A stretch of 42,970 nucleotides of DNA from Candidatus Woesearchaeota archaeon (GCA_018302505.1 JAGVZL010000011.1:1-42970); one strand, 5' to 3'; positions 1-27,707 are shown, numbered from the stretch's first letter. A program made the numbers and translations. Notes: generated by a model not told the origin, from the sequence alone.

Positions 1-744
1 ACAGGAGACAAGACCTCAACCACTTATTATATACCTAATTTTGTTAAAACAGGTACGAAATTTGTTAAAAGAGAGTTTCTAAGAAGCTTCTTTGGATGCG
101 AGGGTGATAAATTAAATTGGCGTAGAGAGAATTGTTTTGAAGCAATTAAACTAACACAACATAAGATAAAAGATCTAGAAAGTGATGAAATTGATTATTT
201 AAATGACATTAGAAAAATGCTTATGGAGTTTGAGATAGAATCATATATAAAAGTGTTTAAAGAAAAAGAAAAAAGAAAAAAAGATAATAAAGAAGTATTG
301 GTATTTCGCCTGCATCTTAAATCTTCCAATAAAAATTTATTTAATTTTTTAAGCAGAGTTGGTTATTATTATGAACAATACAAAATAGAACCTGCAAAAA
401 TTGCTAGTGAATACTTAAGACACAAACAATTTGCCATAAATTTACAAAAGCAAAAAGCATTGCAAGTCATTAATTATATTAGTCAGGGAAAGAACAATCT
501 TGAGGTCATTAAAGAAATGAATTGCACATACGATTTTATCAGGGATAGAAAGAGTGGAAAAGAAATAAAATTAGCATATAGTCAATTTCCTTGGTTTGCA
601 AATTGGAAAGAGAAATATTCTTATAAAAATGGATTTGTATGGAACGAAATTCATGAAATAAAAGAAGTTGAAGAAAAAGAGGTTATGGATATTACATGTT
701 CTGAAAATCATAATTTTATAACAAACGGATTTATTTCTCATAAT
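1..744 (+). mobile_element. Intein (C-terminal portion, with LAGLIDADG homing-endonuclease domain) inside rfcS
   Basis: A LAGLIDADG-type block FLRSFFGCEGD lies at nt 76-108. The terminal splicing block EVMDITCSENHNFITNGFISHN ends at nt 744. It is followed by +1 Cys (745-747) of the extein motif CNYGSKII. The N-terminal junction is upstream of the window. Confidence 0.8.
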
Positions 745-1275
745 TGCAATTATGGATCTAAAATTATAGACCCTATACAGAGTCGTTGTGCCATCTTTAG
801 ATTTAAACCCTTAGAAAAAGAACCAATATCTAATTTAATTAACAAAATAGCAAAAGAAGAAAAAATAAAAGTAGACCCTAAAGCGATTGAAGCAATCTAT
901 CAAATCTCTGAAGGGGATGTGAGAAGAGTTATCAATATAATGCAAAGCTGTGCATCCGTCAGTAAAACCATTACAGAATCCTTAGTTTATGAATTATCCT
1001 CGGCTGCAGAACCCAAAGAGTTAAAGCAGGTTTTGGAACTAGCCTTATCTAAAAATTTCTTAAAAGCAAAAGACCAATTATTGGACATTATGCTCAAACA
1101 TGGCTTGTCAGGTCTGGATATTATCAAGCAAATACAAAAAGAAGTTTGGAATCTAAAAATAGAAGATGAAAAGAAATTAAAAATCATAGAAAAATGCGGT
1201 GAAATAGAATTTAGGATGGTGGAAGGCTCAGACGAATATTTGCAATTGCAAAGTCTATTAGCCAGCTTCTTATAA
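1..1275 (+). CDS. rfcS: Replication factor C small subunit, 5'-truncated by the window edge and interrupted by an intein
   Basis: Frame 1 is open from nt 1; the track ORF 217..1275 is only the part after an internal Met. After the intein the extein reads CNYGSKIIDPIQSRCAIFRFKPL...EGDVRRVINIMQ, which is the RFC-small sensor-1/SRC region plus C-terminal lid domains. Confidence 0.85.
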   Translation, partial: TGDKTSTTYYIPNFVKTGTKFVKREFLRSFFGCEGDKLNWRRENCFEAIKLTQHKIKDLESDEIDYLNDIRKMLMEFEIESYIKVFKEKEKRKKDNKEVLVFRLHLKSSNKNLFNFLSRVGYYYEQYKIEPAKIASEYLRHKQFAINLQKQKALQVINYISQGKNNLEVIKEMNCTYDFIRDRKSGKEIKLAYSQFPWFANWKEKYSYKNGFVWNEIHEIKEVEEKEVMDITCSENHNFITNGFISHNCNYGSKIIDPIQSRCAIFRFKPLEKEPISNLINKIAKEEKIKVDPKAIEAIYQISEGDVRRVINIMQSCASVSKTITESLVYELSSAAEPKELKQVLELALSKNFLKAKDQLLDIMLKHGLSGLDIIKQIQKEVWNLKIEDEKKLKIIEKCGEIEFRMVEGSDEYLQLQSLLASFL

Positions 1276-8693: not shown

Positions 8694-10007
8694 ATGGTTT
8701 ACAATGTAATAGTAGGAAGGGATAAGGAAGACAGAGAGAAATACGGAGAAAGAGGTTTAATTTTATTAGGGAAAACTTATGTTAAAATGGGAAGAAATGT
8801 TTCTTTGTCTAATCCATTATTTTTAGATATTGCAAAAAGTCATGTTATCCTTGTAACTGGCAAAAGAGGTTCAGGAAAGAGTCACAGTCTCGGAGTTATA
8901 GCAGAATCAATAGCGAATCTACCTGAAGAAACAAAACAAAAAGTTTCAGTTATAATTTTAGATACAATGGGAATCTTTTGGTCTATGAAATTCCCAAACG
9001 AAAGGGATGCTAAATTATTGAAACAATGGAACCTAGAACCAAAAGCTTTAGAAGATGTTCAAATTTATACTCCCGAAGGTTATTTTAATGATCATAAACA
9101 GCAGGGAATTCCTGTAGATTTTCCTTTTTCAATAAGGCCAAATACATTAACAGCTTCAGATTGGGTAACAACTTTTAATTTAGATGTTCATTCTCAGGCT
9201 TCAATTTTAATTACTAGAGTTTTAAAAAAATTAATGGGAAATTATTCTTTGCACGACATAATAATGGAAGTTGAATCTGATCAAAAAGCAACTATAGAAA
9301 CAAAAAATTTAGTTGAAAGTCTATTTGAAGCGACAATGGCTTGGGGTTTATTTTCAGAAGAAGGGGAATTATTTGAAAACTTGGCCAAACCAGGAAAAAT
9401 TTCTATAATTGATATTAGCTGCTATTCCTCAGTTTCAGGAAGCTGGAGCATTAAAAGTTTAGTAGCTGGATTAGTTGCTCAAAAATTATTGCAGCAGAGA
9501 ATGATGGAAAGAAAAAAAGAAGAACTAAAAGAAATTAAACAGGGATTTTCACCATTTAAAAAAATAAAAAATATTTCTAAATTACCTCAGACTTGGTTAA
9601 TTATAGACGAATGTCACCAAATGCTCCCCAAGGATAAAATTACGCCAGCAACTAACGCTTTAATTTCTTTATTAAGAGAAGGAAGACAGCCTGGAATTTC
9701 AATGATATTAGCAACCCAGCAGCCTGGAAAAATTCACGATGATGTTATAACCCAATCAGATATAGTTTTATCCCATCGCTTAACAGCAAAACAAGATATA
9801 GATGCATTAAATGAAATGATGCAGAGCTATATGCAACAAGGATTGACTGATGAAATAAATCAACTGCCTAGAGAAACAGGAGCAGGAATTATATTGGATG
9901 ATACTTCTGAAAGAATCTATCCTTTAAGAGTCAGACCGAAATTATCCTGGCACGCTGGTTCTTCTCCATCTGCAGTTGAAGAGATAAAGAAAGAAATAGA
10001 AATTTAA
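8694..10007 (+). CDS. HerA/FtsK-superfamily P-loop ATPase (DUF87/COG0433-like)
   Basis: Walker A is VTGKRGSGKSHSLG and Walker B is WLIIDECHQMLP. The downstream ATQQPGKIHDDVITQSDIVLSHRL resembles the HerA sensor/arginine-finger region. Confidence 0.65.
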   Translation: MVYNVIVGRDKEDREKYGERGLILLGKTYVKMGRNVSLSNPLFLDIAKSHVILVTGKRGSGKSHSLGVIAESIANLPEETKQKVSVIILDTMGIFWSMKFPNERDAKLLKQWNLEPKALEDVQIYTPEGYFNDHKQQGIPVDFPFSIRPNTLTASDWVTTFNLDVHSQASILITRVLKKLMGNYSLHDIIMEVESDQKATIETKNLVESLFEATMAWGLFSEEGELFENLAKPGKISIIDISCYSSVSGSWSIKSLVAGLVAQKLLQQRMMERKKEELKEIKQGFSPFKKIKNISKLPQTWLIIDECHQMLPKDKITPATNALISLLREGRQPGISMILATQQPGKIHDDVITQSDIVLSHRLTAKQDIDALNEMMQSYMQQGLTDEINQLPRETGAGIILDDTSERIYPLRVRPKLSWHAGSSPSAVEEIKKEIEI

Positions 10008-10321
10008 CCTCTCCATCCTCTTCTTGGTTTTAATGAATCTGGTAAATGTTCATATTTATCAGTTATATCTTTTTTTAATTTTCTGATAGAACTTTTTAAT
10101 TCTTCTAATTTAGCATCTTCTTCCCTAGTATCCTCATCTTTTAAATCTCCATGAGAATTAATACCTATTATCCCATCAATAACCGCAATAGCATTTTTCT
10201 TATATTCTTTTATATCCTCTTCATTATCCCGGTTCATAGCATCTTCTAATAAAAATATCGCATTCCTTAAAAAAATAATAAATTTAACTTTCCTTTCTGA
10301 TTCTTGTTTTTTATTACTCAT
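10004..10321 (-). CDS. Hypothetical acidic/coiled-coil protein
   Basis: This 105-aa ORF overlaps the upstream gene by 8 nt (operon-like). No motif is recognised. Confidence 0.4.
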   Translation of the reverse strand: MSNKKQESERKVKFIIFLRNAIFLLEDAMNRDNEEDIKEYKKNAIAVIDGIIGINSHGDLKDEDTREEDAKLEELKSSIRKLKKDITDKYEHLPDSLKPRRGWRG

Positions 10322-10943
10322 TTTTCCCTATTAAGTCCGCAGCACTCGCTCCAATTATAGCGGGTATTGAAACTGCTGCAACCTGTTTGTATATTTCTGT
10401 TATTGTAGCATGCTCTGTTAAGCCGAATATGAACAGTACAAAATAAACTACTGCTAAACTGACAAAGTATATAACTGTTATTCTTGCAGGAATAAATCCA
10501 AATAATTTAATATTCTTGACTTTTCTGAATCCTGCAACATAAATAAATATCATTCCTAAAACATAAGCAGTAACTAACAAAATAGTCGCTCTCATAATGC
10601 TTAGCCCTTCAGATAAATGTGCTCCCTCTAAAAATGCAAAATGACTTACAACTCCAATAAAAGCTCCAATTAATGATTTACCAAAATCTCTGTAAGTTAT
10701 TTTCTTTAAAGGATGGCTTCCAACATTTTTTTCTAAATGCTCCTGCAGTTCATCAATATTTTTCTCAAATTCATCATCCTGTTTTATCTGTCTCTTGCCT
10801 AATCTTTCTAGGATATCATCGCTTTTATTCTGCTCTTTTTCATATTTTAAAATTTTATCCAGCTTATCATCAATTTTATTTAAATTAGGTTTAGAAACAT
10901 TCCTCTTATTAGTCTTTTTTTGAGTCGTTTTTTTCTTTGGCAT
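10314..10943 (-). CDS. Integral membrane protein with a basic/coiled-coil N-terminal tail (possibly DUF2391-like)
   Basis: The N-terminus is MPKKKTTQKKTNKRN... It is followed by four hydrophobic segments (LIGAFIGVVSHFAF, ILLVTAYVLGMIFIYVAGF, VIYFVSLAVVYFVLFIFGL, AAVSIPAIIGASAADLIG). Confidence 0.5.
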   Translation of the reverse strand: MPKKKTTQKKTNKRNVSKPNLNKIDDKLDKILKYEKEQNKSDDILERLGKRQIKQDDEFEKNIDELQEHLEKNVGSHPLKKITYRDFGKSLIGAFIGVVSHFAFLEGAHLSEGLSIMRATILLVTAYVLGMIFIYVAGFRKVKNIKLFGFIPARITVIYFVSLAVVYFVLFIFGLTEHATITEIYKQVAAVSIPAIIGASAADLIGKNE

Positions 10944-11024
10944 TATTTAATTTTAAACTAAATTTATATTTAAATCTTTACATAGAAACATTTATAAATA
11001 GATTTATCACTATCAAATAGTAAA

Positions 11025-11138
11025 ATGAATAGACTAGCAACTTTAGCAGGAATCATTGCAGCTTCAATATTATCTCCTAAGGAAGCTGAAGCAAAAAGCT
11101 GGGAAACTCCAAGATTATCCTCCAAGAATAGGGATTAA
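11025..11138 (+). other. Orphaned signal-peptide ORF belonging to the next CDS (frame break at an A5 run, 11093-11097)
   Basis: The ORF reads MNRLATLAGIIAASILSPKEAEAKS... and stops after 37 codons. Removing one A from the A5 run joins it in frame to 11056..11655. Confidence 0.55.
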
Positions 11139-11655
11139 TCTTCCTGTTCAACAATATGGTGAAAATTTTACACCCGGATTTGCATTTGCTGTAGACTACA
11201 AAGCATCTCAGCCAAGAGCATCTTTTGATTTAGGTTTTTCTGGTTATCAATCACAAGGAGATAATTTTAATTCTAGAGAGAGAGTATGGGGAAGAACCGT
11301 AATAGATTCTTATAATGAAAGTATATGGGAATTAGCAGTGCATGGGGGTCCAACTTTTCATATAAGACCTTCAAATGATTCCTCTTCAATTTTCTTCGGA
11401 GGAGGATTAAGGCAAAATTTTGTTTTTAAAAGCGAAACTGGTCAAGATTCAGATTATAGGGGAACTTCAAGAAGCACAGAAAGAGATGCTATAGCATCAG
11501 AAACAGGATCTTACGGAATAGTCGGAATAGATTTCCCTTTAAAAGATGGAACCTTAGTTTATCTTAGAATAGAGCCTAGATTTACCTTTAACGATGGCTA
11601 TAGGGGGTTATCCGCATTTGTAGGGGTTGATATCCCATTAAAATCAAATAGATAA
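11056..11655 (+). CDS. Secreted Gly/Ser/aromatic-rich beta-strand protein, frameshifted relative to its signal peptide (pseudogene or homopolymer assembly error)
   Basis: The ORF body has no ATG start of its own; the track uses TTG. It shows an alternating hydrophobic pattern (GFAFAVDY, SFDLGFSGY, GSYGIVGIDFPL, LVYLRIEPRFTF, SAFVGVDIPL). Confidence 0.5.
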   Translation: MQLQYYLLRKLKQKAGKLQDYPPRIGINLPVQQYGENFTPGFAFAVDYKASQPRASFDLGFSGYQSQGDNFNSRERVWGRTVIDSYNESIWELAVHGGPTFHIRPSNDSSSIFFGGGLRQNFVFKSETGQDSDYRGTSRSTERDAIASETGSYGIVGIDFPLKDGTLVYLRIEPRFTFNDGYRGLSAFVGVDIPLKSNR

Positions 11656-11727
11656 ATCTAAACAAATTCTAAATTTTCCAGGACCAAAACTTCCGCATTT
11701 AACTTTTTTATTTATCTTAAAATTATC

Positions 11728-12777
11728 TTAAATCAATGACCAAACATGGTTAGGAGTACAAACCTCAATTTTCTTGCCAATTATCTTAACTTTTTTACCT
11801 TCAAGTCTCTTTAAGTGATATCTAATTGTACTACGATGCTTCTTTGTATCTTTTGATATTTCATTTATAGTTTTAGGATTATTTTTTAAAGAAGAAAATA
11901 TTTCTTTTTTAGTTTTGTCTCCATCAAATGCATCTCTTGTAAAAGAACTTAATGCTTCTTCTAATTTTATTCTTTTTCTTTTAATAATAAATCCTATATA
12001 TTTATTATATAGGTTAAGATCTTTCCTACTTATAATTCTCAATAAGAACATTCCGGTAGATTTATCTCTGCCATATTGTTTAATACACGAATTAATACCA
12101 ATTCTACCTAATAAACTTTTCAAAGTTAAGACACTTCTCCCATACATCCTTAAATCGATCCTTTTTTTATTCCACTTCTTATCATATACCATACAACCTT
12201 CAGAATCGAAAATACCTTTCAAAAAAGAAACAATAATCTCCTTTCTGTTAGATTTTAAAATTCTATTAGGAACATTCCAGGAATAAGTTCTTGTATCAAT
12301 CTTATTTGCTAAAAACTCTACTATTTGTACCGAACCAAGTCTTACAACATATTGATCTTTTTTAGTTTCAATCCAGTTATCATATTTAGATTTGTGTTTG
12401 TAGCCATTAACTTTTCTTACATTCATTGTAGGATTTAAACCAGACCATTTCTTTAAAACATTAGAAAAGTTTAAAGCAAAGTCTTTATCCGAAACATTAA
12501 TTCCTATCCTACCTCCTTTCTTATCAATATGTCCATCCCCTATTAATACACCATAAATATAAGCTAACTCTTTAGACAATTTTTTTGATTTCTCAGGAAG
12601 CTTTCTTTGTCTATTTTTCATTGAGACATAATAGGGTTTAACATTTGTATTTGCCCAATACCAAATACTAGTAGGATTAACACCTGTTATCTCTGATATC
12701 TTATTTTGACTTAATCCTTTCTTTTTCAATTCCAACACTTTGTTATAATCTTCCATAGTATATACTTTCTTAATCAT
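11728..12777 (-). CDS. Free-standing LAGLIDADG homing-endonuclease-like protein flanked by N- and C-terminal HTH/wHTH domains
   Basis: It has two LAGLIDADG motifs, LAYIYGVLIGDGHI and IVSFLKGIFDSEGCM. The N-terminal HTH is KKGLSQNKISEITGVNPTSIWYW. The C-terminal wHTH is TINEISKDTKKHRSTIRYHLKRLEG. No intein splicing blocks are present. Confidence 0.7.
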   Translation of the reverse strand: MIKKVYTMEDYNKVLELKKKGLSQNKISEITGVNPTSIWYWANTNVKPYYVSMKNRQRKLPEKSKKLSKELAYIYGVLIGDGHIDKKGGRIGINVSDKDFALNFSNVLKKWSGLNPTMNVRKVNGYKHKSKYDNWIETKKDQYVVRLGSVQIVEFLANKIDTRTYSWNVPNRILKSNRKEIIVSFLKGIFDSEGCMVYDKKWNKKRIDLRMYGRSVLTLKSLLGRIGINSCIKQYGRDKSTGMFLLRIISRKDLNLYNKYIGFIIKRKRIKLEEALSSFTRDAFDGDKTKKEIFSSLKNNPKTINEISKDTKKHRSTIRYHLKRLEGKKVKIIGKKIEVCTPNHVWSLI

Positions 12778-12790
12778 TTTATATCATATA

Positions 12791-12798
12791 AGATATCT
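12791..12798. promoter_or_regulatory. 8-bp palindrome AGATATCT in a divergent promoter region
   Basis: The palindrome is perfect and lies 14-21 nt upstream of the LAGLIDADG gene ATG (12777). See also TATCATATA(A)GATA at 12782-12795 and 12834-12846. Confidence 0.3.
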
Positions 12799-12830
12799 AT
12801 AAGTATCTCAATTATATAAATATTTCTATA

Positions 12831-12845
12831 ATCTATCATATAGAT
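12831..12845. promoter_or_regulatory. 6-3-6 palindrome ATCTAT-CAT-ATAGAT
   Basis: This perfect inverted repeat sits in the intergenic region between the LAGLIDADG gene and the small RHH ORF. Confidence 0.3.
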
Positions 12846-12895
12846 AACTCTTAAGAAACACAAGTAATATAAATATGTTAAACTTATTTTCTAGT

Positions 12896-13048
12896 ATGAA
12901 AAGACTTTTAGTTAGTATTCCAGATGGATCTTGGAGAATCATCGAAAAGAAATTAAAAGGTAGACTTGGAGATAAAGATTCGGAAGTTGTTAGAAATATA
13001 GTTCTATCTTATCTATCGGAAAAAGGTTATATCAAAGATGAATCCTAA
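12896..13048 (+). CDS. Small ribbon-helix-helix (CopG/MetJ-like) protein, not in the ORF track (<60 aa)
   Basis: The ORF reads MKRLLVSIPDGSWRIIEKKLKGRLGDKDSEVVRNIVLSYLSEKGYIKDES, a beta-strand followed by two helices. The TATA-like TAATATAAATA is centred ~26 nt upstream. An alternative ATG lies at 12875. Confidence 0.45.
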   Translation: MKRLLVSIPDGSWRIIEKKLKGRLGDKDSEVVRNIVLSYLSEKGYIKDES

Positions 13049-13821
13049 TTAACTAAAATATCTAATCTAATTTTCCATATTCTAGGACCATAAGGTAATA
13101 CTTTTCTTTTATCTATAATTTTAATCTTTTTATTTGATTTTCTTGCCTCTTCTCTTACTATTTTTACCGCTTCTGAAAATAAATCAGATTCATTAGCCCA
13201 ATAATAAAAATAAATCATTCCTTTCTTTTTAGTCTTATTTAACGCCAAATCCAAATAGGAATATCCTTTTTTTGGCAAAGGCATAATAATTCTATCAAAT
13301 TTATTTTTTATTTTTGGTAATATTTCTTTTACATCACCACTATATAATTTTATTTTTTTAGTTTTATTCAATTTTAAATTTTCTTCAGCATATTCATGGG
13401 CTTTCGGATTTATCTCAACACAACAAATTCTTTTCACATCAGGTTGTTTTTTTTCAATTGCTATACCAAATGGGCAGATACCACTAAACATAATTAATAT
13501 ATCCTCATCCGAATTTACTTTAGTAGCTATCCTTTGTCTTTCAGTTGCTTCTCTAGGAGAAAAATAAGTATATCTCGGATTTAATTTTAATAAGAAACCA
13601 TGTTCTCTATGAATTACCTCCGTATTTTTAATTCCTGCCACAAATTTATATTCTCTATTTCGATATTTACCCTTTCTCTCAGAAGTCTTTTTTAAAACAG
13701 TCTTAATATTTGGATGTTTTTTTAGTATTTCTCTAGCAAAATTTTTCTCTTCATTAGAATTACTTTCTTCTATTATAGCTACAGACTTATCTTTATTTCC
13801 AATAGTATCAAAACTAGTCAT
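13045..13821 (-). CDS. trm5: tRNA (guanine37-N1)-methyltransferase Trm5/Taw22 family (class I SAM MTase)
   Basis: The motifs are SFDTIGN...AIIE, HGFLLKLNPRYTYFSPREATERQRIA, ILIMFSGICPFGIAI, CVEINPKAHEYAEENLKLN and FDRIIMPLP. Confidence 0.75.
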   Translation of the reverse strand: MTSFDTIGNKDKSVAIIEESNSNEEKNFAREILKKHPNIKTVLKKTSERKGKYRNREYKFVAGIKNTEVIHREHGFLLKLNPRYTYFSPREATERQRIATKVNSDEDILIMFSGICPFGIAIEKKQPDVKRICCVEINPKAHEYAEENLKLNKTKKIKLYSGDVKEILPKIKNKFDRIIMPLPKKGYSYLDLALNKTKKKGMIYFYYWANESDLFSEAVKIVREEARKSNKKIKIIDKRKVLPYGPRIWKIRLDILVN

Positions 13822-13855
13822 GAAGAAATAAAAAGAGAAAGAAGTTTAAAAAGTT

Positions 13856-14422
13856 TTAGAAATCTCTAACATTTAAACCAGCACTAACAGTTAAATTCTT
13901 TAAAGTGCCGTCATAGCCATTGCCGTTAAATTCTCTAAGCCATCTTCCCGGCCCGGTTATTCCAACTCTACCTGTTAAATAAACAGGGCCGCTAATTTGG
14001 TAGTCTGAAACAACTGAAGCATTCAGAGGAAATCTAGTTTCGTTTACACCACTTCCTTCTAAATGTTCTCTAGTTACTCCTACTTCTCCGCCAAGCAGCC
14101 AGTAATCATCTACTCTTCCTAATAATCTTAAATTAGCACTAGTAACAGAATTTCTAATATTCCCATAGGCACCATAATCAAAATTATCATCAGCAAAAGG
14201 AATAGGATTAAAAGATAAGCCAGCATACCAATCCTTATCAAGACTAGTTTCTAAAGAATATTCTGGAAATGAAAGATTTGAGGAAGGAACATAAGTTGTT
14301 CTAACACCTGCTCCATTTACATTATCCCTTACTCTGCCTAAAAATCCTCCATCGGCATTTGCGGAACCAGCTAAACCCACAATTACAGCTAAAGGTAATA
14401 AAATCTTTCCTAATGATTTCAT
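13856..14422 (-). CDS. Secreted beta-rich protein with an OMP-like C-terminus (paralog of the C-terminal domain of 14422..15771)
   Basis: The signal peptide is MKSLGKILLPLAVIVGLAGSANA. It shares NLRLLGR and NGNG motifs with the neighbour. It ends LTVSAGLNVRDF. Its ATG overlaps the upstream stop (TAATG). Confidence 0.5.
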   Translation of the reverse strand: MKSLGKILLPLAVIVGLAGSANADGGFLGRVRDNVNGAGVRTTYVPSSNLSFPEYSLETSLDKDWYAGLSFNPIPFADDNFDYGAYGNIRNSVTSANLRLLGRVDDYWLLGGEVGVTREHLEGSGVNETRFPLNASVVSDYQISGPVYLTGRVGITGPGRWLREFNGNGYDGTLKNLTVSAGLNVRDF

Positions 14423-15771
14423 TAGAATCTTACTCCTATTCCGACTCTTGCTTCGCCATAATCTCTTGTAGCATCATTACCATTGCCATTTTCCATAACT
14501 TGTCTTCTCCATTCCCCAACATCCCAGATATCAGCACCAACTTCTCCATAAACTCTGTCAGTTGCAAAATGAGGCACTTGGAATTGGAAATATGGTCCGC
14601 CAGTAATAGACTTCTTACCATCTACATAAGTATGTCCTAAACCAACACCTGCTCTGAAGTCATCATTACCATAAGATAATCTTCCTAATAATCTCAAATT
14701 ATCATTTGATCTGCCAGCTTCAGCACCTAATCCGAAACCATTGTCGAATAATCGATCATAGCTTGCTCCACCATCAAAACTTCCAGTAGATAACTTATAA
14801 GCGGATAATAGGTTTCTTCTAGGAGTTGCTTCTTTATCTTTTGCAGATAATGCTTTCCAAGATTCATAAGTACTTATAAAACTGTCATTAAATCCATCTT
14901 CTCTGTCTTGGCTAATCTTGCCAGCTTCGCCAAATTTATCTACAAACCCAAAATAGTCTAAGATTCCAACAGGGTCACTGTCCTTGTCAAAATCATTTAC
15001 ATTAGCATCAGGGTCTTGAGAATATCTATCTAAAAATAGATTAAAGTCAGCATAGTCAAGCACATTGTCTCCATTTAAGTCCATAGTTGTTAATTCTCTT
15101 ATTGGAACTACAGTAGGAGTAGCATCAGCCTCAACTTTTTGTTCTAATTTTCGACCATAAACTGCATCTTGAATAGCATTACTAAAGTAAACTGCATCTC
15201 CAGGTCTTAATTGTTCAGGTCTTATAGAAACTTCTCTTCCGTTTCTGAAAATCATAACATCATCAACTAAATCAGTGATTTGAGCAGAAGTTAATCTAGT
15301 ATTAGCATTTCTTGCTAAAGCCTCAATTCCACCATGAATAGTATTCCCTCTTTGAACTTTGAAAAAGTCTACTCTACCATCTCTTAAACCATCTATTTCA
15401 TCAAATGAATAATTAGGATTATAAGTCCAGGTGACTTTAGGTGATTGATTAACTATAGCAGGAGCTGTAACAACTGTTTCCGGAACGATTGGCTTTTCCT
15501 CAGCCGTTGGTTCGCTTACTAAAGAGAAGGGTTCCATTGGAATTTCTCCAAACACTGAAATAGGTTCTTCTTCTAAATTAGGAAGATCAATTCCTGGTAA
15601 GGAGCTTTCTAATTCTGGCAAGTATGAGTTTCTTGGACCAACTACTCCACTTCCTGATTCTTCTCTTTCTTTTCTTAAAATTTCTTCATCTGAATTACCG
15701 CCGCAACTAGCACTGCCTAAAGCAGCAATTGCAGCTAACGGCAAAATTAATTTTCTGTATAAACTTCTCAT
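14422..15771 (-). CDS. Lipoprotein with dockerin-like Ca-binding repeats and a C-terminal OMP-like beta-rich domain
   Basis: The lipobox is LGSASC. The dockerin-like pair is DLNGDNVLDYADFNLFLDRY / DFDKDSDPVGILDYFGFVDKF (nt ~14926-15081). The C-terminus is NLRLLGRLSYGNDDFRAGVGLGH...YGEARVGIGVRF. Confidence 0.5.
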   Translation of the reverse strand: MRSLYRKLILPLAAIAALGSASCGGNSDEEILRKEREESGSGVVGPRNSYLPELESSLPGIDLPNLEEEPISVFGEIPMEPFSLVSEPTAEEKPIVPETVVTAPAIVNQSPKVTWTYNPNYSFDEIDGLRDGRVDFFKVQRGNTIHGGIEALARNANTRLTSAQITDLVDDVMIFRNGREVSIRPEQLRPGDAVYFSNAIQDAVYGRKLEQKVEADATPTVVPIRELTTMDLNGDNVLDYADFNLFLDRYSQDPDANVNDFDKDSDPVGILDYFGFVDKFGEAGKISQDREDGFNDSFISTYESWKALSAKDKEATPRRNLLSAYKLSTGSFDGGASYDRLFDNGFGLGAEAGRSNDNLRLLGRLSYGNDDFRAGVGLGHTYVDGKKSITGGPYFQFQVPHFATDRVYGEVGADIWDVGEWRRQVMENGNGNDATRDYGEARVGIGVRF

Positions 15772-15912
15772 TTTTATTTACCTCATAAATATTATTTTTA
15801 TCATTCTATAGTAACAAAAACCCTTTATAAATCTTTCGTTTTGTTTTTCCTAATAATTAAACTAATCTTAGAAAACATTTATATAGAAAAACTATCTATT
15901 TCTATTAAATAA

Positions 15913-15918
15913 AGAGGT
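15913..15918 (+). promoter_or_regulatory. Shine-Dalgarno site
   Basis: AGAGGT lies 7 nt before the ATG at 15926. Confidence 0.4.
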
Positions 15919-15925
15919 TATATGA

Positions 15926-18454
15926 ATGAATAAAAAGCTTTTCTCTGTAGTTTTAATTATATCATCATTATTTTTAATCCCTTTAGTTCAAGCGGGTCCG
16001 ATTTTTGATCTTTTTAGCCGGGTAATACAGACAAACACAATATCTAATTTATATAATAATTATCAAGAATTTATAGAATTCTTTATTTATATGGTTATTT
16101 TTATTTCTTTAATTATTGGCGTATTCAAAGATAGGTTCGAAAAAAAACAAACAAAAGCAATAGCAATTGCATTGGGGACTGCATTATCTATATCTTTAGT
16201 TAATTTTATGCCCGGACTTATTGGAAAATTAGGTCCGATAGCTTTCTTTATTTTTGTAGCCTTATTTTGGTTCTTAATCTTTGCTTCTCTCAAAAAAGGA
16301 TTGGAAAGCAGTTTGTTGTCAATGGCATTGGCATACATCTTTGCTTTCTTAACTTTTGTTTTTCTAGATCATGATAAAAAGGTGCAAAATTTTCTGAAAA
16401 GAACAGAAGTTGGAGAATTTCTTTTAGGTTCATCAACAGAATTATTTATTCTAGCATTGTTCATAGCATTAATCGCTCTTTTTTGGTGGTTAATTAAAAA
16501 GTTTGGTGGATGGACCCCTTCAAGTGGAGGAGCACCATCAGGAGGAGGGACGCCAACAAGGATATCTACTCCCACAACAACAGTTTCAACAGGCGGAGGA
16601 AGTGGCGGAGGAAGTCCATCATTCTGGAAAGATAGAAAATGGTGGGGTGGAAAAAAATCCTCGCATCCAAGTAAAGTTTCAAAAAATTTAAAGAACGCTT
16701 TAAAAGCTGATGAACTGGAAGTCAACCAAATAGAAGATGCTATTGGTTTATTAAAAGATTTAAAGAAAGCGGAAGACAGACTTTCTGAGGAAGAAAAATC
16801 CGCAGTATTATCAAAAATTAATGATTATCTAACAAGAATTATACAAGCTGATCCAACAGAAAGCATAGAAAATTTAGTCAATGAAAGATTGCAGGAAATA
16901 GACCAGCTTAGAAAATTCTTAAATCCAACTACCCCAAGAATAAACGACATTCCACTTTCAAAAGTAGTTTCAAGTCTGGATAGTAATAGATATATATCTG
17001 AAAGCACAAAAAATGAGTTAAAAACATTAATTGCTGAAATGGATGGCAAGGATAGAAAATTATCCAATTATGCAAGGACATTATCCACTTTTAAAAGAGT
17101 TTATGATACAAGAGGTCAGCAATTCCGCAGGTTGGCAGAACAAATAATGGTCAATATTAATACCGGCCAGACACAGGGTTTACCTAAAGATTTAGGAAAT
17201 CTATTGGCACTTAAAAAACATTTAGCAGAAACAGATGAAAGGATTAGTAGGGTGCTAGAAGATCCAGAATTTGTTTATGCAATTGAAGATGTAAAAAATA
17301 TTTATGGGCCGCCAGAAGGAATCGAAGACCGCACACAAGAGCATATTAATATTCACAATATTATAAGAAGTGCATTAGGAGAGAGCTACGTAAATAAATT
17401 TAATACCTATCTTCATGGATTTATGGAAAGTTTTGAAGGAGAAAAAACTTATCAAAATTTTTTGAGATGGTTGGCTAGTAAAAATATTAAGGAAGTTGAA
17501 CCTTTCTTTGGTATCCCATTAGAAGATTTTGAAAACATGTTTAATGCTAGAATTAGTGGAAATAGGAGTGAACCACAAGAAGGCCAACGATTCCCACCAG
17601 CAGAACATGATACTCAAAGAATTGAAAGAAGAGATCCTAAAGAGTTATTTAGAAAAGCAAAAGAATATGGGAATAAAATAGGTAAGGCTTGGGGCATTGA
17701 AAAATTGAGATATAGAGATTTTATTTTTAATTTAACCCAAGAAATGGGTATAAATTCCTATGAAGACTTGTTAAGAATTTATCAAATAGATGATGAATCT
17801 TTGAAAAGAATCTTTGAAAGAGCAACAGGTGTTGTTCCAGAAGAATTTGAAGAGTTAGGAGGAAATAGAAGCAGAGTAGGTGAAGCAGAAAGAAGAAAAC
17901 TAGAAGAATCTCTCATAGAATTATTAGATGCCTTAAAAAGAAATGAACCAAATAGACAATCCACCATTAATTTATTAAGGGCCATAAAGAATTCTGCAGA
18001 TTCTATATATGGTTTAATAGATGACAGAAACAGAGGGGATTATGAAAGGTTTGTACAATTAATTAAGAAATCAGAAAAAAGTCTAATGTCAGGAACACAG
18101 GAATGGGAAGAAGCTGTACTAAGGGACGCGGAGGAGGCAGAATCTCTTGCTAATAAGATTTTTGCGTCATTAAATTTACATTCAAGAGAACAAGAAGAAC
18201 CAAAAGATGAAAATTTAGAAGACAAACAAATAGGACTAGAAAAAAGACTCGAAAGTTTAAGGCATTACTTAAATGAAATATCAGATAAAATTCCCGCTTC
18301 GGAAAGAGGAAATCGTTCTTATCTACTTAAATTAATGAGAGACATAAGTCCGGTATTATCAATAAAAAGCTCAAAGAATCTAAGAGAAGCAGAAAGTATG
18401 ATTCAAGAAGCAGAATCAATAATTGAAAGATGGATTGAAAAATACAGTAATTAA
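15926..18454 (+). CDS. Large membrane protein: signal peptide, about 5 TM segments, Gly/Ser/Pro/Thr linker, ~600-aa charged coiled-coil region
   Basis: The signal peptide is MNKKLFSVVLIISSLFLIPLVQA, followed by TM segments up to ~aa 190. The linker is SSGGAPSGGGTPTRISTPTTTVSTGGGSGGGSP. The rest is E/K/R-rich helical sequence with no recognisable catalytic motif. Confidence 0.5.
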   Translation: MNKKLFSVVLIISSLFLIPLVQAGPIFDLFSRVIQTNTISNLYNNYQEFIEFFIYMVIFISLIIGVFKDRFEKKQTKAIAIALGTALSISLVNFMPGLIGKLGPIAFFIFVALFWFLIFASLKKGLESSLLSMALAYIFAFLTFVFLDHDKKVQNFLKRTEVGEFLLGSSTELFILALFIALIALFWWLIKKFGGWTPSSGGAPSGGGTPTRISTPTTTVSTGGGSGGGSPSFWKDRKWWGGKKSSHPSKVSKNLKNALKADELEVNQIEDAIGLLKDLKKAEDRLSEEEKSAVLSKINDYLTRIIQADPTESIENLVNERLQEIDQLRKFLNPTTPRINDIPLSKVVSSLDSNRYISESTKNELKTLIAEMDGKDRKLSNYARTLSTFKRVYDTRGQQFRRLAEQIMVNINTGQTQGLPKDLGNLLALKKHLAETDERISRVLEDPEFVYAIEDVKNIYGPPEGIEDRTQEHINIHNIIRSALGESYVNKFNTYLHGFMESFEGEKTYQNFLRWLASKNIKEVEPFFGIPLEDFENMFNARISGNRSEPQEGQRFPPAEHDTQRIERRDPKELFRKAKEYGNKIGKAWGIEKLRYRDFIFNLTQEMGINSYEDLLRIYQIDDESLKRIFERATGVVPEEFEELGGNRSRVGEAERRKLEESLIELLDALKRNEPNRQSTINLLRAIKNSADSIYGLIDDRNRGDYERFVQLIKKSEKSLMSGTQEWEEAVLRDAEEAESLANKIFASLNLHSREQEEPKDENLEDKQIGLEKRLESLRHYLNEISDKIPASERGNRSYLLKLMRDISPVLSIKSSKNLREAESMIQEAESIIERWIEKYSN

Positions 18455-18524: not shown

Positions 18525-19001
18525 ATGAAAAGTTATGATTTGGAAAGGAGTATCGGAAGAGATTTAACTATTTTAGCAACAGCAGGATTATATTCTTTAA
18601 GTGCCATTGGGTGCGGGAATGGTCCTGAAGAAAGAGGAGATTTATGGTTTGATGAATCTATCGATGGGGTAAGAGTTGCATATTTTAATGATCCTGATAG
18701 GATGGAAATATATGGACCAAAAGGAGACTTAGTTGAAATCATAGAAGATGATGGCAACGACGAAGTTGGTGACGATTCAGATGATAGATACACCATTTTC
18801 TTAAAAGATGGCAGGTCAAGGACATATGCAGAAAATTATTTTATTGACGAAAGAGGCATTGAATTTAAAGAAGGAGAAGATGCTATCGCAAACAATCTAG
18901 TACAATATTCAAGAGGCGTACTTAAAACAGTAACAGGAAAATATAGAGGATTAAAATCAAAAATATCTAGTATATTAACAAGAAAGTGCACCACTAAATA
19001 A
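18525..19001 (+). CDS. Small acidic putative lipoprotein
   Basis: It has a hydrophobic stretch LTILATAGLYSLSAIGCGNG with a lipobox-like AIGC. Its stop codon lies inside the duplicated fen 3'-end fragment. Confidence 0.45.
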   Translation: MKSYDLERSIGRDLTILATAGLYSLSAIGCGNGPEERGDLWFDESIDGVRVAYFNDPDRMEIYGPKGDLVEIIEDDGNDEVGDDSDDRYTIFLKDGRSRTYAENYFIDERGIEFKEGEDAIANNLVQYSRGVLKTVTGKYRGLKSKISSILTRKCTTK

Positions 19002-23533: not shown

Positions 23534-24190
23534 ATGGTGATAAGAACTTTCTCATTTGACCACAAAGGCGGCTTTTATCAATATAGAGTTCATACCGTAA
23601 AATTAAATAACTTTTGTAAAGGAATATTATTTCCATTAAAGAATTATCTAGAGTCCATCTTTAACTCCTGTCCTAATGATTATTTTCAAAAAGGACCTAG
23701 GTCTTCATCTTTAAAATTTAATCTATCCAATATAAACCTGCAAAATGCTCCAAAACATGAATTATGTTTATTAACACATTATGGTTTAGAACAAAATAGT
23801 AATAGATATTCATCCGCACATTCTAAAGTTCAGGTATTTATGTTAGAGCATGATAAAACTTCAATCGCCTGCGAAACTCCAATATGGCTGTTGCCCGAGG
23901 AGTTAGAATTATATAAAGAGGTTTTCAATTCTAAAGAAGTATTAACAGGACATATTGATATATTAAGAATACAGGATAATAAGATTTGGATTTTAGATTA
24001 CAAACCCAATGCGTCAAAAGAAAAATACGCATCAACTCAAGTTTATTTTTATGCTTTAATGTTAAGCAAAAGAACAGGAATTCCTTTGGAATATTTTAGA
24101 TGTGGTTATTTTGATAATTTAAACTGTTATTTATTTAAACCTGAAGATTGTTCTTTGCCTCAATTAAAATCAATACAGGAATTTATTTAG
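23534..24190 (+). CDS. PD-(D/E)XK nuclease, RecB/Cas4-like
   Basis: The motif order is GHIDILRI (D), WILDYKPN (D-x-K), then STQVYFYALML (QxxxY). Three Cys lie near the C-terminus (FRCGYFDNLNCYLFKPEDC). Confidence 0.6.
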   Translation: MVIRTFSFDHKGGFYQYRVHTVKLNNFCKGILFPLKNYLESIFNSCPNDYFQKGPRSSSLKFNLSNINLQNAPKHELCLLTHYGLEQNSNRYSSAHSKVQVFMLEHDKTSIACETPIWLLPEELELYKEVFNSKEVLTGHIDILRIQDNKIWILDYKPNASKEKYASTQVYFYALMLSKRTGIPLEYFRCGYFDNLNCYLFKPEDCSLPQLKSIQEFI

Positions 24191-27100
24191 AAAAACTATT
24201 CAGATCTACTTGGGTACTGCCTTCTAACAATTCATCTAAAGTAATATTAAAGAAAATTAAAACAGCATTAGCAATAGGTTTTATCTGCTTGTCAATATAA
24301 TGTTTATAATCTAATTTATGTTTCTGATTTTGAATAGGTTCAGGTCCGTCTTCAGTTATAACATACTCAATAACACTACCTTTGAAATTTTTAAGTTTTT
24401 TTGCCGCCTTAACATGTTGAGCATTCATAGCATAATCTTCTAAATTCTTTCTTATTTGTTTTCTATAAACTAAATCTTTGTCATGTCTTCCATCTTTTAC
24501 TTCTTCAATTAATTTTTTAATATAACTCTTAACTTCTTTTTTATGGAATAATCTATCTAATAATTCCATCTGGAATTTTTTTGCTAATTCAGTCCAGTCC
24601 CCCCTAATAGCTTCCATCCCAGTTATTTCAATTTTACCTTTAGAATTCAACCCTGCATATCTTTTTTTTGCACCAGTCTCGCTTCCTCTTACTCTAGGCA
24701 TTAAAAACCTGACAAAGCATTTTTCATATTCTAATTCTAGATGATTATTTCTATTATACTCTTTCTTAACATAACTCTCAAAGAATTTATTTAATTTAAT
24801 ATTTAATTCATTTCCAATTTTCTCCGCCTCTTCTAAATTTTCAGCTTTGCTTAAAACAAAAACCGAATCAGTATTGTGAAGTAGAATATTACCACAAGCA
24901 TCCACAAACGTCTTGTTTTTATCCACAGATAAGTCGTATAAATAATCTTCATAATGGATTTCTTCTATATTAGTTTTTATTCTCGAATTATTTTTATTTG
25001 AAGTTGTAATTGTATAATTACTCTTTTCTTTCCTATATCTGATACTATAATTAAATCTAAGCTGGGTTAATAATGTAGATAAATCCGAAGTTAAACCTAG
25101 TGAATTTGTGCAATAAGAAAAATGCTTTAATTTATATTGTTCAGAATATCTCTTATCCTTTGATTTTCTACTTCCATCTCCTTCAATCATTGTATCTAAT
25201 AAAATTTTTTTATACTTTTCATCTACATGGAACATAAAATAAGGAACTCTTTTTCCATTACTATTTTGTCCAGCCAGTGATTTAAAGAAAACAGCAGAAA
25301 GAATATTCATTAGTTGTAGTTTTTGTGTTTTATCAACATAACTAATATTTTTCTCTGTTTCACCATTAAAATATTTTAATTCTCTAATTTTTTTAGTAGA
25401 AACTATGATAGACACATCCACATTATCAAATAATTTATAATAATCTTCCTTTAGAGATTTTAACCAATTTACATTAGAAGAAGAAATTGAAGCACCCAAT
25501 CTAGATTTTGTTGTTTCCGGAGTTGAAGAAGACCCTTCTGCAATGTATGCTCCAACCAATCTGCATAAAGACTCAAATTCTTTTGATTTAATATCAATAA
25601 ATCTTTTTACCCTTACAGATTTTTTTCTATTTGTCCATCCGAACCACACCCATTTATCATCACAATGAGCCTTCGCAGTTTTTATCCTTCCTTTATAAGT
25701 AACTTTATAACTATAATTTTTTAAATATTCATAAATATCAATTTTAACTATTTTAGGTAAGTCTGGGATCTTAACAATTTTGAATAAGGGTCTTTTTTCA
25801 ATCTCCAAGGGCCTTACTTCTTTTAATTTATTATCTTCAAAAATAATTAATGAATGATCTTCTGAGCAGATTGTTTCTCCATATTTTTGATTTACTCTAA
25901 AAACTTTCTTATTTGTCTTATGTCTTATGATTTCATTAAGTTTAGAAAATTCAGGCTCAAGAGTTTCTTTATTTACTGTTAGAGCAAGAACATTCTCTTT
26001 TCTTAAGTCTATTCTTTCTTTTTTACCAATTATAACCTTCTTTGATATAAATTTTTTAAATAACTCTTCCATACTAATTATCAACAATTTTCCATTAACT
26101 ATCAATGTTGTGAACCGATCTTTGGTTATACTATCTGAATAAATAACTTCATAACCCTCCTCTTCAACTTTTTCAGCTGTTAATTTTATCATCTTCTGAC
26201 CAAAATGAGTAATTGCATTAGCAACGTCTAAAGAAAAAAATCTGCAATTAGCATTAGCCAAAACACCAAAAAAACTATTTAATAAAATTTTAATTGCATG
26301 TCTTTGTAATTCATTTTTCTCTTTTTTAGCCTTGTCTCTTGATTTTAATAATCTTTCAACTAAAACACCCATTACTCCATTTTGATTCTTAAAACAGGCT
26401 CCATTAGGTGCTTTAATTAAATTCTTACCATTGCAATTTTCAACATAACTAAGTGGATCAATATTAAATGTTCTCATCAAACTAGGATAAAGGCTTTTGA
26501 AATCTAAAACTAATAAATAATCATAAATCCCAGGTTTAGATTCCATAACATAACCGCCCTTAATTCTCTCCTCTTTTGGAGTATAGTGACCGGAATTAGC
26601 AACATAACCTCTCTTATTCAATTCCCTTAAATACAAAGAATCTAAAGAAGCAATGGAAGCATTTACCCTGTCTAATGGCATCCCTGTTAAGATGCTTCTT
26701 TCAATAGTCATCTCAATTATCTTAGTTTTTTTTAATATCTCTGTAACTAACCTTGCATCATTCAAATTATATTTAGCTAATTTTTTCTTATCTTCTCTAA
26801 ACAGCCTATCAATTTCTTCACCTTTGCCTTCTATATAAGAAATTAATTTACCTTCTTTTAAAATAGATTGAGCAGCATCTTCCAATTTATAACTATCCAA
26901 GTCGACAAAACTCATTCTTAATAACTGAATTCCATCCAAAACAACTCTTCCAGGAAAATCAGCTTTAGAATCCCTAAAAAAATCTTTCTCAATTCTAATT
27001 TTACATGTTTCGTTTGTTCTTCCCAAAACAAAAGAGATTCTATGTTCTTTAAATTTATTTTTCAAATATTCTAAATCAAAATCAATTAAATTCCATCCTG

Positions 27101-27707
27101 TTATAATATCTGGATCCTCTTCTAAAATTATCTTTTTGAATTCTTCCAACATCTCTTCTTCATCCATATCAATTAAAACTTTCTCAAATCCTTCAGAATA
27201 AATTGCAATGCTGTATAATTTTTTACCGTTTGAACTCGTTTCAATATCTACTGAAAATATTTTTAGATTATTAGGAAAATACTCTATTGGTTTTATCTCA
27301 GCGTCCCTGTAAATTCTGTTAATAAAATCACTTGTTTCATAGTCACCATCTATTTCAACACCCATCATTATTTCTTTATCCATTAAATACCGATAAGCAA
27401 ATCTAATATCTGCTTCATAGCATTCAATTCCGTCTTCCTCAAAACTTCTTCTTAAACCAGGAACATCTTTCGGAGTTTCTAGAATAACTCTTGATAATTT
27501 TTCATCATTGAAACTTTTGAAATCACTATTTTCAATCTTAAAATCCCCATTACCAGCTTTTTTAACATCTTTAGTTTTAATATAAAAATAAGGTTCATAG
27601 AAATTCATAACTAAAAAACTCTCTCCATTCTCTAATTTTCCAAACAAAAAAACATAACTTTTCCCATCTATTATCTTATAGCTTGGGTAAAGTATAAAAC
27701 CTTTCAT
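24183..27707 (-). CDS. polB: Family B DNA polymerase containing one intein
   Basis: The exonuclease motifs are FSVDIET, NLIDFDLEYL and YNLNDARL. The polymerase motifs are DFKSLYPSLM, KILLNSFFGV and a split motif C, VIYSD|...|TDSVFV. Confidence 0.9.
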   Translation of the reverse strand: MKGFILYPSYKIIDGKSYVFLFGKLENGESFLVMNFYEPYFYIKTKDVKKAGNGDFKIENSDFKSFNDEKLSRVILETPKDVPGLRRSFEEDGIECYEADIRFAYRYLMDKEIMMGVEIDGDYETSDFINRIYRDAEIKPIEYFPNNLKIFSVDIETSSNGKKLYSIAIYSEGFEKVLIDMDEEEMLEEFKKIILEEDPDIITGWNLIDFDLEYLKNKFKEHRISFVLGRTNETCKIRIEKDFFRDSKADFPGRVVLDGIQLLRMSFVDLDSYKLEDAAQSILKEGKLISYIEGKGEEIDRLFREDKKKLAKYNLNDARLVTEILKKTKIIEMTIERSILTGMPLDRVNASIASLDSLYLRELNKRGYVANSGHYTPKEERIKGGYVMESKPGIYDYLLVLDFKSLYPSLMRTFNIDPLSYVENCNGKNLIKAPNGACFKNQNGVMGVLVERLLKSRDKAKKEKNELQRHAIKILLNSFFGVLANANCRFFSLDVANAITHFGQKMIKLTAEKVEEEGYEVIYSDSITKDRFTTLIVNGKLLIISMEELFKKFISKKVIIGKKERIDLRKENVLALTVNKETLEPEFSKLNEIIRHKTNKKVFRVNQKYGETICSEDHSLIIFEDNKLKEVRPLEIEKRPLFKIVKIPDLPKIVKIDIYEYLKNYSYKVTYKGRIKTAKAHCDDKWVWFGWTNRKKSVRVKRFIDIKSKEFESLCRLVGAYIAEGSSSTPETTKSRLGASISSSNVNWLKSLKEDYYKLFDNVDVSIIVSTKKIRELKYFNGETEKNISYVDKTQKLQLMNILSAVFFKSLAGQNSNGKRVPYFMFHVDEKYKKILLDTMIEGDGSRKSKDKRYSEQYKLKHFSYCTNSLGLTSDLSTLLTQLRFNYSIRYRKEKSNYTITTSNKNNSRIKTNIEEIHYEDYLYDLSVDKNKTFVDACGNILLHNTDSVFVLSKAENLEEAEKIGNELNIKLNKFFESYVKKEYNRNNHLELEYEKCFVRFLMPRVRGSETGAKKRYAGLNSKGKIEITGMEAIRGDWTELAKKFQMELLDRLFHKKEVKSYIKKLIEEVKDGRHDKDLVYRKQIRKNLEDYAMNAQHVKAAKKLKNFKGSVIEYVITEDGPEPIQNQKHKLDYKHYIDKQIKPIANAVLIFFNITLDELLEGSTQVDLNSFSK
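24873..26132 (-). mobile_element. 420-aa intein with LAGLIDADG endonuclease domain in polB motif C (pol-c type site)
   Basis: It starts with Ser (SITKDRF...) after YSD and ends ...FVDACGNILLHN before TDSVFV. Block B is CSEDHSLI. The LAGLIDADG blocks are LVGAYIAEGSS and LLDTMIEGDGS. Excision restores YSDTDS. Confidence 0.85.

Follow-up and report, generated by a model that had tools for sequence, protein, structure and literature searches.

The 42,970-nt window analysed here, contig C27 in full, comes from a genome of 869 kb with a completeness of 85.8% and a contamination of 0.71%, and carries on its minus strand two genes, of which the products, P0001 (449 aa; 14422–15771) and P0002 (188 aa; 13856–14422), end in eight-stranded β-barrels of the type found in bacterial outer-membrane proteins (OMPs). 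Both open reading frames (ORFs) belong to a Nanobdellota (DPANN) archaeon, a tiny organism of symbiotic type; their neighbours in the window are archaeal (S19e, L31e, aRF1, FEN1, PolB, Cdc48, and RFC), and the barrels are native to one family of this lineage. No match to the insertase Omp85/BamA was obtained in this genome, in 240 genomes of the order or in 291 of the phylum, with seven diderm controls scored by the same search. To our knowledge, membrane β-barrels are confined to the outer membranes of bacteria, mitochondria, and plastids, and need Omp85 insertases. On balance, we consider it probable that the members of this Nanobdellota order either have a bacterial-type outer membrane of their own, as BamA-free diderms with the lipoprotein enzymes Lgt and LspA, or exploit that of a Gram-negative host, as parasites that place OMPs and a LysM-like tether in its envelope.

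The barrel of P0001 occupies residues 319–449 (14425–14817, minus strand), has a helical last loop and terminates in R-V-G-I-G-V-R-F. With a nine-row alignment as the input of AlphaFold2, an eight-stranded antiparallel barrel was obtained with a predicted local distance difference test (pLDDT) score of 67–91, as compared with a pLDDT of only 33 for the single sequence. The best Foldseek matches of this barrel are OmpA, OprF, Ail, and OmpX, and all of the top 15 rows are transmembrane barrels, either natural or designed; matches to phage OMP barrels in BFVD have E-values of 1e-4 to 1e-2. The Atlas model of P0002 (pLDDT, 0.67) resembles OMP barrels with TM-scores of 0.65–0.77 and feature values of 0.95–0.96, and in Atlas searches with either protein the named clusters are OMP-type only. 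Profile alignment of P0002 with the P0001 barrel (hhalign probability, 81%; E = 1.2e-5 across the final 49 columns) identifies P0002 as its stand-alone paralogue. In sequence searches against Pfam, NCBIfam, and the PDB sequences, by contrast, neither protein gave a match above any cut-off, including those of PF13505, PF01389, and PF06316; the P0001 orthologue in genome G004 scored 17.5 bits against an OMP barrel hidden Markov model (HMM) with a cut-off of 28.7. The original prediction of OMP-like barrels in both proteins is thus supported by the models, Foldseek, Atlas, and the residue pattern described below; instead of a soluble β-sandwich or no barrel, eight strands were modelled from a real alternation in the C-terminal region.

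Because water-soluble eight-stranded barrels tie with membrane barrels in geometry, the proteins could also be of the HphA, HpuA, TbpB or avidin/lipocalin type, serving as adhesins or lipid scavengers of a single-membrane cell. Foldseek, which uses residue identity, nevertheless places membrane barrels first, and the identity in structural alignments averages 12.9% to 13 membrane barrels versus 7.4% to 32 soluble barrels, with five unclassified rows excluded and the rows being related to one another. Among six homologues, one face of the barrel is rich in Gly (27%) and charged residues (24%), and the other in aliphatic (53%) and aromatic (16%) residues. Gly thus lies on the same face as conserved Arg/Glu/Asp and Tyr, opposite to bulky apolar residues, where the apolar-outward/Gly-inward direction is deduced from the residue pattern itself and strands 1–2 are ambiguous in the automatic split. 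Moreover, 7 of the 15 members of alignment A11 match OMP_b-brl (best E = 3.5e-9), and the Atlas clusters mentioned above point in the same direction. The soluble barrels that are substrates of Slam (HphA, hemophilin, HpuA, TbpB, NHBA, and fHbp) have a handle domain that P0001 lacks, show lower identity, and are not its nearest relatives by Foldseek or Atlas. The residue pattern of the model favours a membrane barrel for P0001, residence of the barrels in a membrane is likely, and the soluble alternative appears improbable.

In bacterial OMPs, an aromatic residue at the C terminus of the last strand is part of the β-signal, and its presence in both proteins had been part of the basis of the original prediction. 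P0001 is one of only two among the 846 ORFs of the genome ending in a β-signal-like pattern, the terminal aromatic residue is in register in all seven homologues of its family, and the chain ends in Phe in six of the seven. In the P0002 family the residue is found in two of five members and is out of register; the terminal Phe of P0002 itself follows V-R-D, and three of the five members end in GLNVR without it, so that it does not qualify as a β-signal. The motifs thought to be shared by the two proteins survive in part: within the family of P0001, NLRLLGR is not kept intact, while the last loop and strand containing GNG are common to both, with the consensus G.W...GNG[YF]D.

Several observations place the two genes in the archaeal genome. 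Positions 9672–16878 are covered without a single difference by one 7.2-kb contig of another sequencing run (possibly the source of the assembly), and therefore no chimera is present at this stretch. The two genes have a G+C content at third codon positions (GC3) of 0.18, inside the range of the genome (median, 0.23; 5–95%, 0.17–0.29 for 632 ORFs); the genes are therefore native or fully ameliorated. Homologues of the P0001 family occur in 3 of the 10 genomes of the taxonomic family, belonging to three genera, each time just upstream of trm5, and were not found in the other families in the 240 order genomes or in a 401-genome sample of the class. Seven matches were found among 1.84 billion representatives, all of them from P0001's own family, and the two that are named are labelled Nanoarchaeota archaeon. 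Retrieved homologues numbered two for P0002, two for P0001, and four in alignment A7, too few for a phylogeny against bacterial OMPs. Recent horizontal transfer from bacteria, put forward earlier as one possible origin, and contamination are both unsupported, given the native GC3, the gene order kept in three genera, and the origin of all seven matches. The P0001 gene stands before trm5 without a P0002 gene in G004 and G007, and locus L017 has both.

P0001 consists of an N-terminal signal or anchor, a low-complexity linker, a LysM-like domain, an optional dockerin-like pair, a helix, and the C-terminal barrel, as delineated by alignment and AlphaFold2; in alignment A7 the conserved blocks are residues 110–207 and the C-terminal 130 residues. 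Residues 1–23 (15703–15771, minus strand) comprise a basic N-region and an Ala/Gly-rich hydrophobic segment ending in S-A-S-C, which may be either a cleaved signal peptide or a retained anchor. A hydrophobic N-terminal segment is found in every full-length member of the barrel family, with signal cleavage judged by eye. The proposed lipobox has its Cys; however, S-A-S-C has Ser at position −3 and violates the motif [LVI][ASTVI][GAS]C, as given in PMC12462473, and the Cys is missing from P0009 and P0010, both other full-length homologues in A7, whose N termini look by eye like uncleaved anchors. Lipidation of P0001 is doubtful, and the lipoprotein reading is a weak one, even with Lgt and LspA present.

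Residues 110–207 (15151–15444, minus strand) form a conserved β-α-α-β domain with an inserted hairpin, showing 42–48% identity in three homologues and a pLDDT of 74–82 (AlphaFold2). An hhalign comparison with 16 LysM domains from other genomes of this order gave a probability of 66% (E = 5.4e-5) with both LysM ends aligned, and the secondary structure of the model fits LysM. The domain differs from LysM in a 15-residue insertion and in having no Pfam or HMM match to PF01476; the structure-match lists of P0001, filled by the barrel, contained no fold match for it. The earlier notion of a LysM-like segment is therefore retained as 'LysM-like', not as LysM. The chances that it binds glycans are about even. 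Canonical LysM domains occur in 28 of the 240 order genomes (L056–L080), none of them in P0001's taxonomic family.

The third N-terminal element, residues 230–283 (14923–15084, minus strand), is a degenerate paired EF-hand module that varies between lineages: P0001, P0011, and L017 have it, whereas P0009 and P0010 (two of the four homologues covering the region) do not. Its paired Ca-loop pattern is like that of type I dockerins (PF00404) elsewhere in the genome, and it resembles the dockerin units of two other proteins, with E = 7e-4 against an HMM of four units of this genome (biased composition) and E = 1.6e-5 by tblastn. P0001 is, however, absent from the five Dockerin_1 matches of the genome, the only Pfam match of the module being to EF-hand (E = 0.3), and the pair is modelled at pLDDT < 50 (AlphaFold2). 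Cohesin (PF00963) gave no match in this 86% complete genome. The module is optional, and a dockerin–cohesin function of P0001 is only weakly indicated. Surface proteins with dockerin repeats are encoded elsewhere in the genome (G000), at C48:10816–13686 (above the Pfam cut-off) and at C10:18617–19351.

Besides P0001 and P0002, the window contains a third OMP-like barrel gene on the plus strand (11025–11655), which had been missed by the original prediction. Its signal peptide, starting from the ATG at 11025, runs into a stop, and the barrel continues in the next frame (11056–11655); the frameshift lies just past the signal peptide, near a short run of A. An assembly error was rejected as its cause, since contigs of four runs cover the break without a gap (three of the four possibly being the source). 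The gene is intact in G004, G006, G007, and G035; a G143 match has internal stops and was taken as chance. No profile similarity of this third family to P0001 or P0002 was detected. Of the nine genomes of the family in which trm5 was found, eight have a barrel-like exported gene facing it, with those of G001, G002, and G009 assigned by position and by alignment by eye. A scan of the genome contigs with trm5 gave no match. A genome-wide screen for alternation missed P0001 and P0002 and was discarded, so that other barrels of this genome may be overlooked.

Across the order, PF13505 matches were found in 25 of the 240 genomes (seven above the cut-off), distributed over 11 of 29 families. An OmpW-like gene (L021, G122:C24) on a contig with a GC content of 0.67 in an archaeal bin was dropped as a probable contaminant, leaving 24 of 240 genomes; the remaining 25 places have host-like GC. 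The chain ends in Phe, Trp or Tyr in 12 of these 25 places as compared with 10% of the ORFs of the present genome, an excess inflated by the search itself. Many of the matches consist of a signal, a variable domain, and a C-terminal barrel. Such a barrel gene is recurrently followed by an Ig/cadherin-like surface gene (L020, L024, L027–L030, L032, L036, L038, L042, and L043), one of them with a dockerin, and several barrels of this pair appear from their length to have more than eight strands. In all 11 loci, the hydrophobic region of the barrel signal is less hydrophobic than that of the downstream Ig-like surface gene (2.12 versus 3.23). Signals of bacterial OMPs are also moderately hydrophobic, so that the difference indicates a distinct export class, not a destination.

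Lgt is encoded as a full-length, bacterial-type protein (PF01790, E = 6.6e-64; TIGR00544 above the cut-off) at G000:C38:11717–12418 (L082, L084), near the archaeal genes of TFIIB and a tRNA splicing endonuclease, and was found in all seven family genomes searched; LspA (PF01252 above the cut-off) lies at G000:C36:4100–4510 (L083:1420–1830). According to PMC12462473, homologues of Lgt had not been identified in archaea. Lgt and LspA together suggest the use of a bacterial-type lipid. The genome also encodes a secreted SLT lytic transglycosylase (E = 7.7e-23) at G000:C56:2780–3406 (L081:1387–2013). In PMC8204110 and PMC10936187, murein transglycosylases are reported in DPANN with bacterial hosts proposed, and the term 'outer membrane' appears in neither; peptidoglycan hydrolases are described as prominent in Nanoarchaeota (PMC12352652). 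Among 116 candidate exported proteins, most signals are rich in Leu/Ile/Phe, and only a small number, including those of P0001 and the transglycosylase, are rich in Ala/Gly. Other proteins with Ala/Gly-rich signals and high Arg/(Arg + Lys) are encoded at C37:1570–2286 and C56:16962–19721 of the genome and at 18525–19001 of the window; two of these three have a lipobox-like Cys, and the 919-aa member ends by eye in a TolB-like repeat. They may be regarded as candidate host-directed proteins.

Based on these features, we propose that the three genes encode exported, membrane-integral, eight-stranded barrels, which would act as closed anchors or adhesins and not as wide pores. P0001 would be anchored twice, by its N-terminal anchor and by its barrel. 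In OMPs, the termini and the short turns point toward the periplasm. The linker and the LysM-like domain of P0001 would then lie on the short-turn, 'periplasmic' side of the barrel, with the helical, conserved loop outside; with the linker and the LysM-like domain between two anchors, P0001 may therefore act like a tether across a periplasm. Since no insertase was found in this archaeon with OMP-type barrels, nor Skp or SecA in its incomplete genome, the second membrane would most likely be the outer membrane of a Gram-negative bacterial host. Its periplasm might be reached once the lytic transglycosylase of the archaeon has opened the wall, or following delivery into the host; the barrels could then be inserted by the host's β-barrel assembly machinery (BAM), as for phage-encoded OMPs such as Lom, thereby fixing or remodelling the contact site in the host envelope. 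Phage-encoded OMPs are described as common (bioRxiv 10.64898/2026.10.24.761521). Both the host destination and the delivery route are what we infer from this arrangement, and we put forward tentatively that P0001, P0002, and the third gene product are envelope proteins aimed at the outer membrane of a Gram-negative host.

Three points speak against such a destination: the barrels would have to enter the periplasm or cytoplasm of the host, and no route for this was found; 11 of the 25 loci are linked to the archaeon's own Ig/cadherin surface genes; and the eroded β-signal fits freedom from BAM. The latter two would be explained if the archaeon had its own outer membrane, into which the barrels insert spontaneously or through an unrecognised insertase, and which P0001 ties to the cytoplasmic membrane. 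The occurrence of PF13505 in 24 of 240 genomes and 11 of 29 families, the barrel-like gene facing trm5 in eight of nine family genomes, the native Lgt and LspA, and the two-anchor architecture needing no delivery step are likewise in its favour, as are the double membranes reported in ARMAN and SM1/Altiarchaeum cells (PMC4243693). Omp85 is, however, without a match in any of the 240 order and 291 phylum genomes, Skp gave no match in this incomplete genome, and no conserved outer-membrane pathway was found. The barrels are also patchy, fast-evolving, and not part of the core, with 215 of the 240 genomes lacking a PF13505 match, G003 lacking the trm5-facing gene, and that gene being broken in the present genome. 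An outer membrane of its own, the main alternative, seems rather unlikely for this archaeon.

Small barrels can fold into thin bilayers in vitro without BAM. The proteins could thus insert unaided from outside, into the single membrane of the archaeon or the outer-leaflet side of a partner, with an insertase being dispensable, and serve as C-terminal anchors displaying N-terminal domains (LysM-like, dockerin-like or Ig), an arrangement compatible with the many order-wide matches that combine a signal, a variable domain, and a C-terminal barrel. P0002 and the third gene product, however, stand alone with nothing to display, P0009 and P0010 seem already to keep an N-terminal anchor, and the terminal aromatic residue is still enriched (12 of 25 versus 10%). 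We regard such unaided anchoring as very unlikely.

The proteins can be compared with known systems. Bacterial eight-stranded OMPs (PF13505, the OmpA N-domain PF01389, OprF, Ail/Lom/OmpX PF06316, NspA, and Thermus TtoA, PDB 3dzm) have the same fold as P0001 and P0002, which differ in the lack of a sequence match above the cut-off, in an archaeal host without a BamA, Skp or SecA match, in the helical and conserved last loop of P0001, and in the absence of an in-register terminal aromatic residue from P0002. The wall-binding domain of OmpA is C-terminal, whereas the domains of P0001 are fused N-terminally to the barrel. In OmpM/SlpA of diderm Firmicutes, Deinococcus, and Thermotogae, an N-terminal wall-binding domain and a stalk precede a C-terminal outer-membrane barrel. 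By analogy, P0001 may have a comparable layout, with a LysM-like domain in place of SLH domains, eight strands in place of a larger porin barrel, and a probable N-terminal anchor. Phage-encoded OMPs (lambda Lom, and those of huge phages in the preprint cited above) offer the parallel of a dependent organism without BAM encoding eight-stranded OMPs; they are, however, expressed inside the host, whereas the archaeon would need delivery or access to the periplasm, and no sequence homology to them was detected. The only mention of an OMP-type barrel in DPANN that we found is one tentative sentence, in PMC12228718, on a possible PopA relative in Altiarchaeales; the PopA superfamily is 16-stranded and oligomeric, and Altiarchaeales are a lineage other than that of P0001. 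The parts consulted of PMC6349945 and of a 208-genome preprint (10.64898/2026.05.13.725050) contain no discussion of such barrels, and no paper on OMP barrels in Nanobdellota was found in the literature searched, subscription journals being mostly outside it. Although the fold itself is known, the searchable literature does not describe it as native to an archaeon without Omp85. Native barrels across a DPANN order without an Omp85 match would imply one of two surprising situations: archaea with an outer membrane into which barrels are assembled by a separate route, or archaea that parasitise Gram-negative bacteria across the domain boundary. Being small and expressible, the barrels offer a way to test which hosts and envelopes the abundant groundwater Nanobdellota have.

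The two genes are present as originally described, with the quoted sequences, and are translationally coupled through a TAATG stop/start overlap. A ribosome-binding-like site, GAGGT, precedes P0001, and P0002 begins with a signal peptide having an A-N-A site, as judged by eye. Downstream lies the gene of a Trm5/TYW2 tRNA methyltransferase (13045–13821, minus strand), which serves as the positional landmark and is probably co-transcribed. A free-standing LAGLIDADG/HTH ORF (11728–12777, minus strand), which separates trm5 from the third barrel gene, has no counterpart at this position in relatives; a longer HerA ORF of G002 is weakly similar to it. On the other side, an 842-aa membrane protein with no family match is divergently transcribed (15926–18454, plus strand), and in relatives a gene resembling it, very variable in length, sits between FEN1 and trm5. 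Intein signatures were observed in RFC, PolB, and aRF1 (window positions 217–1275, 24183–27707, and 38110–39612, respectively) and in TFIIB (L084:14916–17378); an intein within aRF1 seems unusual.
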